64,000 nucleotides of DNA. Source: Escherichia coli. Lineage in GTDB: Bacteria > Pseudomonadota > Gammaproteobacteria > Enterobacterales > Enterobacteriaceae. Under the pieces are notes generated by a model, which worked only from the letters and a program-made list of their open reading frames with translations, was not told the DNA's origin and did not search any database. How positions within the stretch are numbered: the stretch's first letter is position 1; each line of letters begins with the position of its first letter. Shown one piece after another: positions 57,288-60,316 of the stretch. Where the stretch lies: assembly GCF_044324875.1 (NCBI RefSeq), contig NZ_CP172185.1; one strand, given 5' to 3'. The translations under genes were made by a program, and so were the position numbers.

Positions 57288-58027
57288 GTAACTGGCCTTA
57301 TCCCCGCATCGTCGCCCATCGTGGCGGCGGTAAACTGGCCCCGGAGAACACCCTGGCAGCAATCGACGTCGGGGCAAAATACGGTCATAAGATGATCGAA
57401 TTTGACGCGAAGTTATCGAAAGATGGCGAGATCTTCCTGCTCCATGACGACAATCTTGAACGCACCAGCAACGGCTGGGGCGTCGCGGGCGATCTGAACT
57501 GGCAGGATTTACTGCGCGTGGATGCAGGCAGTTGGTACAGCAAAGCGTTTAAAGGTGAGCCGCTACCGTTGCTTTCGCAGGTGGCGGAACGCTGTCGCGA
57601 ACACGGGATGATGGCGAATATCGAAATCAAACCCACCACTGGCACCGGGCCATTAACGGGCAAAATGGTGGCGCTGGCGGCACGCGAACTGTGGGCCGAT
57701 ATGACGCCGCCGCTGCTGTCATCGTTTGAGATTGATGCTTTAGAAGCTGCACAACAGGCTGCACCGGAACTGCCGCGCGGTTTGTTGTTGGATGAGTGGC
57801 GCGACGACTGGCGAGAACTGACCGCGCGACTGGGCTGCGTCTCTATTCATCTCAATCATAAGTTGCTTGATAAAGCGCGAGTGATGCAGTTGAAAGACGC
57901 CGGATTACGGATTCTGGTTTATACCGTCAATAAACCCCAGCGCGCGGCAGAGTTGCTGCGCTGGGGCGTGGATTGCATCTGCACCGATGCGATTGACGTG
58001 ATTGGTCCGAACTTTACGGCCCAATAG
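57284..58027 (+). CDS. ugpQ: Glycerophosphodiester phosphodiesterase UgpQ
   Basis: 247-aa GDPD-family enzyme starting [16 protein letters not shown]. Confidence 0.9.
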
Positions 58028-58454
58028 TTTTCAACGGTATATCAGGCTGCGGCGTGCTGGGCTGATTCAGCATGTCGCCGTTTCTCCTCTCCGGCAACAT
58101 ATGCTGCTGATTCAACGAACTATCCGGATTACGGTTGCTGTTTAACATCCCGCCGTTGGTATTGGGCAGCATTTGCTGCCGGGCGGGATTTCGCTCCCCC
58201 GGCTGTGACTGCAACACCCGCTGAGAATTATTGTTTATCTGGTTTTCTAAATGCTGTTGTTGCAACTGAGTTTGCGTTTTCAGTTGCTGATTCAGCATCC
58301 CTTTTTGCTGGATTTGCTGCGTCTGCATTTGAGTCTGCATCCGCTGCTGACTGGGGATCTGATACCCCGGCTGGTTAGGGTTGTTCAGAGTATTAATGGG
58401 CTGTGCAAAGCCGACAAACGGCAGGAGTGCCGTAAGAATCAGAAGTCGTTTCAT
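58014..58454 (-). CDS. yhhA: Secreted Gln/Asn-rich low-complexity protein YhhA
   Basis: 146 aa with signal peptide followed by an extremely Q/N-rich low-complexity sequence. Confidence 0.75.
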
Positions 58455-58573
58455 CGCGTATCCTCCTCTGAAGATATTCTTTAAGTTTACTCCTTTCCTG
58501 CAATCATCAGGATTAATTCAGAGTTATATACCAGGCTTAGCTGGGGTCGCCCCTTAATCTCTGGAGAATAACG

Positions 58574-60316
58574 ATGATAAAACCGACGTTTTTACGCCGG
58601 GTGGCCATTGCTGCTCTGCTCTCAGGAAGTTGTTTTAGCGCCGCCGCCGCGCCTCCTCCGCCACCTGTTTCTTATGGCGTGGAGGACGATGTCTTTCATC
58701 CGGTACGCGCGAAACAGGGGATGGTGGCGTCTGTAGATGCTACTGCCACTCAGGTGGGGGTGGATATCCTCAAGGAGGGTGGGAATGCCGTTGATGCCGC
58801 CGTGGCGGTGGGCTACGCGCTGGCGGTAACGCATCCGCAGGCAGGGAATCTGGGCGGTGGTGGTTTTATGCTGATCCGCTCGAAAAATGGCAATACCACC
58901 GCTATCGATTTCCGCGAAATGGCACCCGCCAAAGCGACCCGCGATATGTTCCTCGATGACCAGGGCAACCCGGACAGCAAAAAATCACTCACTTCGCATC
59001 TGGCCTCCGGTACGCCAGGTACGGTCGCAGGTTTCTCGCTGGCGCTGGAGAAGTACGGCACCATGCCGTTAAATAAAGTGGTGCAGCCGGCGTTTAAACT
59101 GGCACGCGATGGTTTTATCGTTAATGACGCGCTGGCTGACGATCTCAAAACCTACGGTAGCGAAGTGTTGCCGAATCACGAAAACAGCAAGGCTATCTTC
59201 TGGAAAGAGGGCGCGCCGCTGAAAAAGGGCGACAAGCTGGTGCAGGCGAACCTGGCAAAGAGCCTGGAGATGATTGCCGAAAACGGCCCGGACGAATTCT
59301 ACAAAGGCACGATAGCGGAACAGATTGCCCAGGAGATGCAGAAAAACGGTGGCTTGATCACTAAAGAAGATTTAGCGGCGTATAAAGCGGTCGAACGTAC
59401 ACCGATTAGCGGCGATTATCGCGGGTATCAGGTTTACTCCATGCCACCGCCATCTTCCGGCGGGATCCATATCGTACAAATCCTCAATATTCTGGAAAAC
59501 TTCGATATGAAGAAATACGGCTTTGGCAGCGCCGACGCGATGCAAATCATGGCAGAAGCTGAGAAATATGCCTACGCCGACCGCTCGGAATATCTTGGCG
59601 ACCCGGATTTTGTCAAAGTTCCGTGGCAGGCGCTGACCAATAAAGCCTATGCCAAATCTATTGCCGATCAAATCGATATCAATAAAGCGAAGCCATCCAG
59701 CGAAATTCGCCCCGGCAAGCTTGCGCCTTATGAGAGTAATCAAACTACCCATTACTCAGTGGTGGATAAAGACGGCAACGCGGTAGCGGTGACCTATACG
59801 CTGAACACCACCTTCGGGACGGGCATTGTCGCGGGCGAGAGCGGTATTCTGCTTAATAACCAGATGGATGATTTCTCCGCCAAACCTGGCGTACCGAACG
59901 TTTACGGGCTGGTGGGTGGTGACGCCAACGCGGTCGGGCCGAATAAACGCCCGCTGTCGTCGATGTCCCCAACCATTGTGGTGAAAGACGGTAAAACCTG
60001 GTTAGTGACTGGTAGCCCAGGCGGTAGCCGGATCATCACTACCGTGCTGCAAATGGTGGTGAACAGCATCGATTATGGTATGAATGTCGCCGAAGCGACC
60101 AATGCACCGCGTTTCCACCATCAGTGGTTGCCGGACGAACTGCGCGTCGAGAAAGGATTTAGCCCGGATACGCTCAAGCTGCTGGAAGAAAAAGGTCAGA
60201 AAGTAGCGCTGAAAGAGGCGATGGGCAGCACACAAAGCATTATGGTTGGGCCGGACGGCGAGTTGTACGGCGCATCCGATCCGCGCTCGGTGGATGATTT
60301 AACGGCGGGGTATTAA
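58574..60316 (+). CDS. ggt: Gamma-glutamyltranspeptidase
   Basis: 580 aa with signal peptide and the conserved Thr-containing autoprocessing region (NQTTHYSVVD). Confidence 0.95.
   Translation: MIKPTFLRRVAIAALLSGSCFSAAAAPPPPPVSYGVEDDVFHPVRAKQGMVASVDATATQVGVDILKEGGNAVDAAVAVGYALAVTHPQAGNLGGGGFMLIRSKNGNTTAIDFREMAPAKATRDMFLDDQGNPDSKKSLTSHLASGTPGTVAGFSLALEKYGTMPLNKVVQPAFKLARDGFIVNDALADDLKTYGSEVLPNHENSKAIFWKEGAPLKKGDKLVQANLAKSLEMIAENGPDEFYKGTIAEQIAQEMQKNGGLITKEDLAAYKAVERTPISGDYRGYQVYSMPPPSSGGIHIVQILNILENFDMKKYGFGSADAMQIMAEAEKYAYADRSEYLGDPDFVKVPWQALTNKAYAKSIADQIDINKAKPSSEIRPGKLAPYESNQTTHYSVVDKDGNAVAVTYTLNTTFGTGIVAGESGILLNNQMDDFSAKPGVPNVYGLVGGDANAVGPNKRPLSSMSPTIVVKDGKTWLVTGSPGGSRIITTVLQMVVNSIDYGMNVAEATNAPRFHHQWLPDELRVEKGFSPDTLKLLEEKGQKVALKEAMGSTQSIMVGPDGELYGASDPRSVDDLTAGY

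Follow-up and report, generated by a model that had tools for sequence, protein, structure and literature searches.

YhhA of Escherichia coli, an exported Gln/Asn-rich protein with a predicted helical core of fixed length and a tentative role as a soluble stress protectant

Introduction

What could be the use of an exported protein whose mature chain is built largely from glutamine, asparagine, leucine and proline? The question is raised by a gene on the minus strand of the window, as we call the whole stretch of 64,000 nucleotides of Escherichia coli DNA that was analysed. A first-pass annotation of this DNA had named the gene yhhA and had compared the composition of its product with that of prion-like or amyloid-forming proteins. 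yhhA is a core gene whose product is abundant in stationary phase and forms part of the general stress response, and its role, once learned, would add a piece to the understanding of periplasm maintenance in cells that have stopped growing. The gene is already known and no new kind of system is revealed. Our analysis adds the anatomy of the protein (a signal peptide, a conserved N-terminal motif, a predicted polar helix of fixed length and a predicted disordered tail confined to certain lineages). It also defines the putative ancestral DUF2756 core from short Erwinia-type homologues and supplies computational evidence against reading YhhA as an amyloid, a prion, a coiled coil, an effector or a CpxP-like or spanin-like protein.

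Identity, distribution and gene order

The reading frame (58014..58454, minus strand) runs from an ATG over 146 codons to a TAA stop, and its product is 100% identical to YhhA of strain K-12. It matched the DUF2756 profile of Pfam (PF10956) with 202.9 bits (cut-off 21, E=1.1e-60) along profile positions 1-105 of 105, and the NCBIfam equivalog NF007675 (PRK10350) with 265 bits (cut-off 136), residues 1-146 being covered. Of 5426 complete E. coli genomes, 5424 have yhhA annotated between ggt and ugpQ, among them K-12 and B strains, which are devoid of the LEE type III secretion system. Both profiles and these annotations confirm the name given on first reading and, judged by its sequence, the frame is E. 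coli yhhA, an already catalogued gene. It is a monocistronic core gene, and DUF2756 is a small family limited to Enterobacterales, many non-pathogenic members of which carry homologues.

In the window yhhA is accompanied by ggt, ugpQ, ugpC and yrhB, with ggt transcribed divergently and ugpQ convergently, an order found throughout E. coli. The ggt-yhhA-ugpQ arrangement recurs in Salmonella, Buttiauxella, Enterobacteriaceae bacterium 4M9, Erwinia psidii and two metagenomic short forms. We rejected a functional tie of yhhA to either neighbour on grounds of synteny, since the genes are divergent or convergent and not co-transcribed, and ggt is missing in L012 and L004; the arrangement is treated here as apparent ancestral synteny only.

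Composition and repeats

The first reading had described a mature part dominated by Q, N, L and P, and these four residues indeed account for 57% of its 129 residues (Q 22.5%, N 14.0%, P 10.9%, L 9.3%). Q and N alone reach 36.4%, ∼4.4 times the background of 8.2% calculated over the window's 61 long ORFs (binomial tail 4e-19), the other long ORFs containing at most 18.6% in any 129-aa stretch. This bias characterizes the family: 22 homologues, drawn from distant lineages, have Q+N contents of 28-49%. Cys is absent, aromatics are represented by one residue (0.8%), and charged residues contribute 12%, Met 5.4% and Gly 5.5%. The protein is strongly hydrophilic, with a GRAVY of −1.05 at full length and −1.40 in the mature form (family range −1.0 to −2.2).

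The loose repeats that had also been reported turned out to be weakly present. The longest homopolymer runs are QQQ or NNN, Tandem Repeats Finder detected nothing at the DNA level between 57900 and 58600, direct repeats in the DNA are short (10-20 nt) and dispersed, and the best internal match of the protein to itself (z=2.9 against shuffles) was reached by 1.3% of the shuffled sequences. The clearest repeat was a two-copy unit of ∼23 aa, QQ(H)MLP-x3-4-NG-x-MLN, recognized by protein self-alignment and by direct repeats in the DNA. Copy 1 comprises aa 93-115 (58110..58178, minus strand; direct repeats D3, D5 and D8, 72-nt spacing) and is absent in E. albertii P0037, and copy 2 comprises aa 116-138 (58041..58109, minus strand), with H118, M119, L120, G126, M128 and L129 invariant or near-invariant among 20 homologues.

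Protein anatomy and predicted structure

Residues 1-17 (58404..58454, minus strand) display the n/h/c anatomy of a signal peptide, with K2 and R3, then a hydrophobic core of 13 residues, and with small residues occupying positions −3 (G15) and −1 (A17). All 20 homologues compared share A17, Q18 and P19. These features uphold the earlier assignment of a signal peptide, predicted to be of the Sec type and to be cleaved after A17, before Q18, leaving a mature protein of 129 residues. In agreement with export, YhhA has been co-extracted with periplasmic proteins (PMC9731836).

The mature protein would begin with an Asn/Pro-rich motif (aa 18-33; 58356..58403, minus strand), delimited by conservation and low dN, in which N21, N24, N25, P26, N27, P29 and Y31 are invariant or near-invariant in the same homologues; AlphaFold2 (AF2) gave it no secondary structure and a pLDDT of about 50-60. 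It is followed by a Gln-rich core predicted to be helical (aa 34-86, ending QRVLQSQPG; 58197..58355, minus strand). The AF2 model, a single-chain prediction on a low-complexity sequence, consists of one Gln-rich helix at residues 34-82 with pLDDT 71-87 and an overall pTM of 0.24, and elsewhere pLDDT is below about 55; the helix could be only transiently populated. Residues 35-84 constitute the only proline-free stretch of the protein. From NPSQQRMQxQM to QRVLxSQPG (PS..QPG distance), the core measures 53 aa in 71 proteins (51 unique sequences), short Erwinia-type forms included, and this length is kept even at about 35-45% identity. Such persistence suggests that the 53-residue Gln-rich core is the ancestral part of the DUF2756 family.

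Hydrophobic periodicity within the helix gave a Fourier power of 5.2 at 3.67 residues and 6.2 at 5.0, and the power of 0.35 at 3.5 residues led us to discard a canonical heptad coiled coil. A tandem helix-linker-helix model computed with AF2 to probe self-pairing (pTM 0.34, helix pLDDT down to 66-69) contained no confident packing, which is weak negative evidence.

The C-terminal portion is an Asn/Gly/Pro/Met-rich tail predicted to be disordered (aa 87-146; 58017..58196, minus strand; pLDDT 44-52). It carries the two MLP/MLN repeats and is present in Enterobacteriaceae and missing from the short forms of 87-103 aa, which stop soon after SQPG. A conserved motif at its end (aa 135-146; 58017..58052, minus strand), (T)PQ(P/A)xIPLKT(I/V)xP, is retained in most Enterobacteriaceae homologues and in every E. 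coli indel variant. Overall, the models depict YhhA as a predicted soluble polar helix with a floppy tail. The view of an exported product unlike an enzyme holds, and this low-complexity, Q/N-rich protein is largely disordered by prediction, with a FoldIndex of −0.22 and a pLDDT <50 outside residues 34-82. Sequence and profile searches of the PDB yielded no matches, either with the full-length alignment (E≤1) or with the mature-core alignment (E≤10).

Selection and natural variation

Relative to K-12, yhhA carries 11 nucleotide differences, all synonymous (dN=0, dS=0.13), and its dN/dS against Salmonella is ∼0.075, with dS saturated. Mass spectrometry has revealed the protein in STEC, in Salmonella and in one ESBL E. 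coli strain. Because the K-12 differences are all synonymous, dN/dS is low and the protein is detected, yhhA is a real gene under constraint. Against Salmonella, dN was 0.089 for the N-terminal motif, 0.11 for the helical core and 0.335 for the tail, compared with 0.097 for the neighbouring enzyme gene ugpQ, and the N-terminal motif had a dN of 0.0 against Buttiauxella. By this measure, helix and N-terminal motif are constrained as strongly as ugpQ. The family keeps its sequence position by position across genera, beyond mere composition, and an alignment of 20 homologues from different genera has 32 invariant columns.

Homologues in a collection of 5.8 billion proteins include many length variants of 96-165 aa, and natural helix alleles changed by −10, −17 and +17 residues occur. 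In-frame length polymorphism was nevertheless dismissed as a major trait of the gene, which measured exactly 441 nt in all 59 complete E. coli genomes of an even sample, so that length variants are rare, probably under about 2%. A few natural strains have lost yhhA or carry it truncated, and rare indel alleles are present; the fitness contribution of yhhA may therefore be small.

Upstream region, expression and abundance

A Shine-Dalgarno sequence, GGAGGA, lies 6 nt 5′ of the ATG (58461..58466, minus strand) and is invariant in a spacer alignment of five genera. Farther upstream, that alignment contains a conserved block, GTAAACTTA, in which we infer a candidate σS-type −10 element, TAAACTTAA (58481..58489, minus strand), which includes TAAACT (58484-58489) and resembles the σS −10 consensus, TATACTTAA. 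A third element of the divergent ggt-yhhA spacer is an invariant block of 10 nt, TAAGCCTGGT (58530..58539, minus strand), identical in E. coli, Salmonella, Buttiauxella and Enterobacteriaceae bacterium 4M9. A scan for σ70 consensus promoters upstream of yhhA returned none.

Published data place the gene within the RpoS network. A SELEX peak of the RpoS holoenzyme has been mapped to the ggt/yhhA spacer (PMC5493296), yhhA figures among the members of the RpoS regulon that are switched on when the temperature is shifted down (PMC4057180), and its expression rises together with that of rpoS at the transition to stationary phase (PMC2241611). It is also induced by a LolCDE inhibitor (PMC5105897) and by multiple stresses (PMC9501238), and sub-MIC β-lactam raises YhhA at the protein level (PMC9927464). 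When stationary-phase cells were extracted in PBS at 60°C for 30 min, YhhA was among the top 15 proteins of the extract, recovered in soluble form after 0.22 µm filtration (PMC9731836).

The amyloid and prion question

On the reading that goes back to the first-pass annotation, YhhA would be secreted as a functional amyloid or prion-like protein and would polymerize through its Q/N-rich region, for example in the biofilm matrix. Several properties agree with this idea. Prion-like domains call for Q/N enrichment over at least 60 aa, and the 36% that YhhA maintains over 129 aa falls in their typical range, not far from the 44% of the N domain of Sup35, the yeast Q/N-rich prion, with which it also shares low complexity and extensive predicted disorder. 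Q-rich helices are in principle convertible to β-aggregates. Like CsgA and other secreted functional amyloids, YhhA is small, Sec-exported by prediction and Q/N-enriched, and its expression is linked to RpoS.

However, the prion and aggregation scores came out below threshold. In our own re-implementation of a PAPA-style score, with a threshold of 0.05, YhhA obtained −0.018, while the controls Sup35N (0.10) and CsgA (0.078) passed in the same script; an AGGRESCAN-type analysis found no hot spots in mature YhhA versus three in the CsgA control. High PAPA values need few Pro and charged residues. Proline attains 11% in YhhA as opposed to 4% in Sup35N and 2% in CsgA, aromatics 0.8% as opposed to 18% in Sup35N, and the charged fraction also exceeds that of Sup35N. 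Functional amyloids would be expected to have a β-rich repeat fold or aggregation-prone segments, whereas the AF2 model of YhhA is composed of helix and coil instead of the β-solenoid of CsgA, and the sole proline-free segment is precisely the one predicted to be helical. No match of YhhA to the curlin repeat (Curlin_rpt, PF07012), Fap or any other amyloid family was obtained in Pfam at E≤1, and no dedicated nucleator or export genes (csgB/E/F/G- or fap-like) occur among the neighbours of yhhA. Unlike Sup35N, YhhA is extracytoplasmic and conserved position by position, and its abundance in soluble form after mild heat extraction and filtration (PMC9731836) also speaks, if indirectly, against a polymer. 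Taken together, these data make the amyloid reading very unlikely.

A periplasmic stress protein and its rivals

We favour, tentatively and at somewhat less than an even chance, the view that YhhA is a Sec-exported protein of the RpoS regulon with a Gln-rich helix of fixed length, acting as a soluble stress protectant. As a member of the RpoS general-stress regulon, yhhA is induced on entry into stationary phase, after cold downshift, and by stress to the envelope or from antibiotics, and YhhA might then function as a soluble, highly hydrated periplasmic protein resembling hydrophilin/LEA-type protectants, coating or spacing envelope components stoichiometrically once growth stops. Contacts could be made through the conserved helix, with the tail serving as a flexible, entropic extension, and the protein would be neither an enzyme nor an amyloid polymer. 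With hydrophilins and LEA-like RpoS-dependent stress proteins YhhA has in common its marked hydrophilicity, predicted disorder with helical propensity, lack of Cys, induction by stress and in stationary phase, abundance and solubility on heating. In contrast to them, it is periplasmic rather than cytoplasmic and rich in Gln/Asn rather than Gly/Lys/Glu, and the two share no sequence homology. The definition of hydrophilins that Garay-Arroyo et al. reportedly gave in 2000 combines Gly >6% with a mean hydrophilicity index >1 (a Kyte-Doolittle mean below −1). The GRAVY values of YhhA agree with the latter, and its Gly content stays short of the former (1-5% in the short forms, 1-12% in homologues overall), which speaks against a protectant of this type. 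Hydrophilins are further expected to accumulate under water deficit; the papers examined here describe induction of yhhA through RpoS, in stationary phase, by cold and by envelope stress. By analogy, then, YhhA may be called a hydrophilin-like periplasmic protectant or a binding helix with low confidence. The Gln-rich periplasmic linker of FtsN, a flexible or extended low-complexity spacer, is functional in E. coli, and YhhA likewise brings Q-rich low-complexity sequence into this compartment, although it has neither a transmembrane anchor nor a terminal globular domain and its Q-rich part is conserved in sequence and length and predicted to be helical.

The residue-level conservation and fixed length of the helix are no less compatible with a specific partner or ligand than with a non-specific shield. 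YhhA could accordingly be imagined as an adaptor or regulator, whose helix and terminal motifs dock on one envelope partner (for instance another protein, a sugar polymer or peptidoglycan) in order to modulate or tether it in stationary phase. The 32 invariant columns, a helix dN equal to that of ugpQ, the core length fixed across divergent homologues and the survival of PQPxIPLKTxxP in every in-frame indel variant all plead for such docking. Nevertheless, yhhA has no operon partner, its only conserved neighbours being the divergent ggt and the convergent ugpQ, the high abundance of the protein is better suited to a bulk role, and the short DUF2756 forms lack tail and C-terminal motif altogether. 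We regard the adaptor as a serious though rather unlikely competitor of the protectant. Still less probable, and in our opinion doubtful, is a variant of the protectant in which the helix (53 residues, ∼80 Å if fully helical) would be a polar single helix of a new type in the periplasm, which self-associates reversibly through hydrogen bonds of Gln side chains into an envelope-protecting gel- or condensate-like phase at high concentration, as in stationary phase or upon water loss. If true, this would constitute a bacterial extracytoplasmic analogue of LEA/CAHS-type desiccation protectants and a softer, reversible form of the earlier aggregation idea.

The conserved methionines of YhhA (RMQTQM, GMLN three times, QHMLP) might alternatively scavenge oxidants such as HOCl or bind soft metals such as Cu(I) and Ag(I) in the periplasm, as disordered Met/His-rich proteins of that compartment do, and M39, M43, M53, M103, M119 and M128 are invariant or near-invariant. 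Three of ten short forms also gave sub-threshold matches to Metal_resist in Pfam (E about 1e-3; best 20 bits against a cut-off of 29.2), but once the signal peptide was removed only 2 of 21 members still matched, with E≥0.034. Moreover, several short forms contain 1-3% Met, His is scarce in YhhA, without MxxH/HxxM arrays, and regulation of yhhA specific to copper, silver or oxidative stress was not found in the literature examined, so that we give this function very little credit. The same figures led us to reject kinship with CpxP, Spy and ZraP (LTXXQ, Metal_resist), which resemble YhhA in being small, stress-induced, helical periplasmic proteins with Q-rich helix starts, though no helical hairpin is predicted for YhhA; a mature-only DUF2756 profile retrieved no Spy, CpxP or ZraP chain from the PDB at E≤10. 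A relationship to Rz-like i-spanins was set aside as well, since the PHROGs matches of some full-length short forms (E 3e-4 to 0.02) dropped to none on mature sequences. Both kinds of match are, from their large disappearance on mature sequences, driven by the hydrophobic N-terminus of the short forms. When the short form P0173, which is embedded in a phage, was compared with a phage database, nothing matched. Finally, yhhA has been called an experimentally validated EPEC effector (bioRxiv 10.1101/364117), and the accompanying S/TQ-QS/T cluster analysis would make YhhA a type III secretion effector mimicking ATM-kinase S/TQ substrates in host cells; its S/T/Q/N-rich, Cys-free sequence does resemble those of secreted substrates. 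Effectors of this class are expected to have no Sec signal and a distribution tied to T3SS-bearing strains, whereas YhhA is predicted to have a cleavable Sec signal peptide of canonical form, the A-QP junction of which is invariant, its gene is core in E. coli, LEE-less strains included, and occurs in many non-pathogens, and it is controlled by RpoS like housekeeping stress genes. We excluded YhhA from the class and find the effector role hardly credible.

The convergent 3′ ends of yhhA and ugpQ

An Rfam scan of positions 57500-59000 at E≤1 gave no match and no sign of an RNA element. The convergent coding ends of yhhA and ugpQ overlap by 14 bp according to the ORF coordinates (58014..58027, no strand assigned). 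The extent of this overlap is variable: it is 4 bp in Salmonella, and elsewhere the two ends are separated by 1 to about 700 bp. The yhhA-ugpQ pair has been described as a candidate excludon (PMC12288877).

Identity and selective constraint of yhhA

Our analyses show or strongly support that the yhhA product is a soluble, abundant periplasmic protein, exported by Sec, linked to RpoS and under constraint, in which a conserved polar helix is followed by a disordered tail. The ORF (58014-58454, minus strand) starts with an ATG downstream of a strong Shine-Dalgarno sequence, GGAGGA (58461-58466), and encodes 146 aa that match Pfam DUF2756 with 202.9 bits (cut-off 21) and the NCBIfam equivalog PRK10350 with 265 bits (cut-off 136). 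Its DNA was matched in 5424 of 5426 complete Escherichia coli genomes, always chromosomal, annotated as yhhA and flanked by ugpQ and ggt; the arrangement in K-12 is identical to that found here, and all 11 nucleotides (of 441) that differ from K-12 are synonymous. Against Salmonella, dN was 0.216 for yhhA, 0.097 for ugpQ and 0.073 for ggt, with a dN/dS for yhhA of about 0.075 (dS saturated). Constraint on the N-terminal motif (dN 0.089) and on the helix (0.11) is on a par with that on ugpQ, while signal peptide and tail (0.34) evolved about three times faster. Taken together, the synonymous-only differences from K-12, the low dN/dS and the regional constraint indicate that yhhA is a genuine reading frame kept by purifying selection; antisense ORFs at the locus are by-products of its CAG/CTG-rich sequence.

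The 441-nt allele was present in 59 of 59 complete genomes sampled. Many rare E. coli alleles from public assemblies and metagenomes (proteins P0001-P0035 and P0092) have lost or duplicated 3-50 residues in frame within the Gln-rich helix (58197-58355), giving lengths of 96-165 aa; the endpoints fall on short motifs that recur in the sequence, QQQH among them. The same sources also contain frameshifted and truncated versions. In one complete genome, E. coli A16 (NZ_CP028758.1), a deletion takes the 3' half of yhhA together with the 3' end of ugpQ, and frameshifts run across the ugp operon, while two of the 5426 complete genomes had no yhhA match whatever. Natural loss of yhhA is possible and very rare. 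E. coli C41(DE3) carries Pro97Leu in the conserved LPNT motif (codon 97, ~58164-58166), a change considered by the authors irrelevant to tolerance of membrane-protein overexpression (PMC4632034).

Composition and predicted structure

The N-terminus of YhhA has a pair of basic residues and a hydrophobic core of 13 residues; positions −3 and −1 are occupied by small residues, QP follows, and A17, Q18 and P19 are invariant in the alignment of homologues. The mature protein of 129 residues contains 22.5% Q, 14.0% N, 10.9% P and 9.3% L, no Cys and a single aromatic residue. Its Q+N content of 36% exceeds the background of the long ORFs in the window (8.2%) with a binomial tail of 4e-19, and no 129-aa stretch in the other long ORFs surpassed 18.6%. 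The first-pass annotation, which described a signal peptide followed by a sequence dominated by Q, N, L and P, was thus correct on both points. The loose repeats that it also reported are weakly developed: a two-copy protein unit and short, dispersed DNA repeats are present, while Tandem Repeats Finder returned 0 repeats at yhhA. The best internal self-match of the protein reached z=2.9 versus shuffles, the clearest repeat being QQ(H)MLP..NGxMLN (aa 93-115 and 116-138), and no polyQ or polyN run exceeded three residues. One tail-repeat copy is missing from the Escherichia albertii protein.

An AlphaFold2 model built on a 20-sequence alignment (mean pLDDT 60, pTM 0.24) predicted a single helix at residues 34-82 (pLDDT 71-87), with the rest non-regular (pLDDT about 44-59); the helix matches aa 35-84, the sole long segment free of proline. 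In the core, hydrophobic positions return approximately every 5 residues (Fourier power 6.2 at period 5.0, as against 5.2 at 3.67 and 0.35 at 3.5), hence the core is not a canonical heptad coiled coil, nor is it a cleanly amphipathic helix. A helix-(G4S)6-helix tandem construct was predicted as two separate helices (pLDDT down to 66-69, pTM 0.34), which, as weak evidence, lends no support to self-pairing. No solved structure related in sequence to YhhA or DUF2756 was found, even at E<=10.

The DUF2756 family and its locus

A word-indexed search returned 467 proteins, all 467 of them DUF2756, from named sources in Escherichia, Salmonella, Citrobacter, Enterobacter, Yokenella, Phytobacter, Buttiauxella and Dryocola. 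When 1.84 billion representatives were searched exhaustively with a profile, only 79 clusters emerged at E<=1e-3, including many fragments, so that the family is tiny. The weak profile matches included short forms of 87-103 aa, as in Erwinia psidii, all above the Pfam cut-off. In these the signal peptide is retained, as are an N-rich stretch and the core NPSQQRMQxQM ... QRVLxSQPG, and the C-terminal tail is missing. PS and QPG lie 53 residues apart in the 71 DUF2756 proteins fetched (51 unique sequences), a spacing seen even in the distant short lineages among them (identity about 35-45%). The compositional bias is likewise family-wide (Q+N 28-49%, Cys absent, aromatics nearly absent).

The gene order, with ggt divergent from yhhA and ugpQ convergent with it, is kept across the span from Escherichia to Erwinia and also in short forms from metagenomes; beside the DUF2756 gene, ggt is absent in locus L012, and both ggt and ugpQ in L004. 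A functional tie to ggt or ugp was rejected, given these losses and the lack of co-transcription; since yhhA is not co-transcribed with ggt or ugpQ, the shared position reflects ancestral synteny only. In Erwinia psidii (L001, 3680-4750), genes for an AvrPphF/HopF-family type III effector and a CesT-type chaperone are inserted between ggt and the DUF2756 gene, the locus being otherwise conserved. In a contig of JGI metagenome 3300012995 (L003, 5001-5264), the gene for an 87-aa short form, P0173, lies amid phage head and packaging genes, flanked by genes for a large terminase and a protease-capsid fusion and adjoining a 4HBT thioesterase gene and two small ORFs. This placement is like that of a moron; the phage genome collection held no P0173 homologue.

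Regulatory elements and expression

The divergent ggt-yhhA spacer (58455-58573) is of near-constant length, 112-123 bp, in four genera, across which two blocks are invariant. The first, TAAGCCTGGT (58530-58539), without obvious assignment, could serve ggt or yhhA. The second, GTAAACTTA (58481-58490), about 30 nt upstream of the yhhA ATG, resembles the sigma-S −10 consensus, and no sigma-70 consensus promoter was found at yhhA; judged by its sequence, GTAAACTTA is a candidate sigma-S promoter element of yhhA. An RpoS-holoenzyme SELEX peak is located in the same spacer (PMC5493296), yhhA rises alongside rpoS on leaving exponential growth (PMC2241611), and it is named among the RpoS-regulon genes induced by cold downshift (PMC4057180). 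Induction has also been reported under acid shift (PMC2270276, PMC7824302), several stresses (PMC9501238) and a LolCDE inhibitor (5.6- to 9.9-fold; PMC5105897). MS has detected the protein in Salmonella and in an E. coli ESBL strain, in which its level goes up under sub-MIC beta-lactam. It is also among the 15 most abundant proteins in stationary-phase STEC extracts, for which cells were heated in PBS (60 °C, 30 min) before centrifugation and 0.22 µm filtration (PMC9731836). These MS and extract data indicate that YhhA is abundant, exported and recovered soluble.

At their 3' ends, the coding sequences of yhhA and ugpQ overlap by 14 bp (58014-58027), an extent specific to E. coli (4 bp in Salmonella; elsewhere the two ends stand 1 to about 700 bp apart). 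A terminator-like hairpin (58049-58078, plus strand) lies 22 nt past the ugpQ stop, inside the yhhA coding sequence. No such site was found for yhhA itself, hence its transcript probably continues antisense into ugpQ. The pair is listed as a candidate excludon (PMC12288877), and a sigma-28 (RpoF) SELEX peak has been reported within ugpQ, just downstream of yhhA (PMC5493296).

Possible function of YhhA

The gene, the family and the odd composition are already known from public databases and at least one preprint; what is added here is the anatomy of the protein with its ancestral core of 53 residues, the short forms, and negative results for several readings, though none of this is likely to surprise specialists. 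YhhA may be a highly hydrated, non-enzymatic envelope protein of stationary phase, for which we rank first a putative hydrophilin- or LEA-like protectant role because the protein is abundant, extremely hydrophilic (mature GRAVY −1.40), heat-soluble and induced by stress. Its Gly content, 5.5%, is below the 6% of the formal definition, so the proposal is that YhhA works like a hydrophilin, not that it is a member. An adaptor for a specific partner comes a close second, favoured by conservation of individual residues and by a helix of fixed length. That YhhA forms a reversible, Gln-mediated gel or condensate acting as a protectant in the periplasm seems improbable.

The prion-like or amyloid character suggested in the first-pass annotation found no support. 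A PAPA-style score (own script, threshold 0.05) was −0.018 for YhhA, versus 0.10 for Sup35N and 0.078 for CsgA with the same script, and an AGGRESCAN-style scan of the mature protein gave 0 hot spots versus 3 in CsgA. Proline amounts to 11% and aromatics to 0.8%, the sole proline-free stretch is predicted helical, conservation is position-specific, the Pfam search gave no curlin-type match, nucleator and export genes are absent nearby, and the protein is recovered soluble from the 60 °C filtered extract (PMC9731836); we give this reading hardly any credence. The claim that yhhA encodes a type III effector (10.1101/364117) is very unlikely, considering its canonical Sec signal and its presence in essentially all E. 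coli, K-12 included. A Met-rich scavenger or metal binder would fit the conserved Met positions, but His/Met arrays are absent, several short forms are Met-poor and supporting regulation was not found in the literature consulted, making this role of low probability.

Three short forms matched Pfam Metal_resist at E of about 1e-3; on mature sequences 2 of 21 did so, at E of at least 0.034, and with an empty PDB profile search a CpxP/Spy/ZraP-like protein was rejected. An Rz-like spanin was likewise discarded, the weak PHROG matches being gone on mature sequences. A ppApp photoaffinity probe captured YhhA among only six proteins of an E. coli lysate (PMC9310846), a capture that for a periplasmic protein is most likely non-specific.
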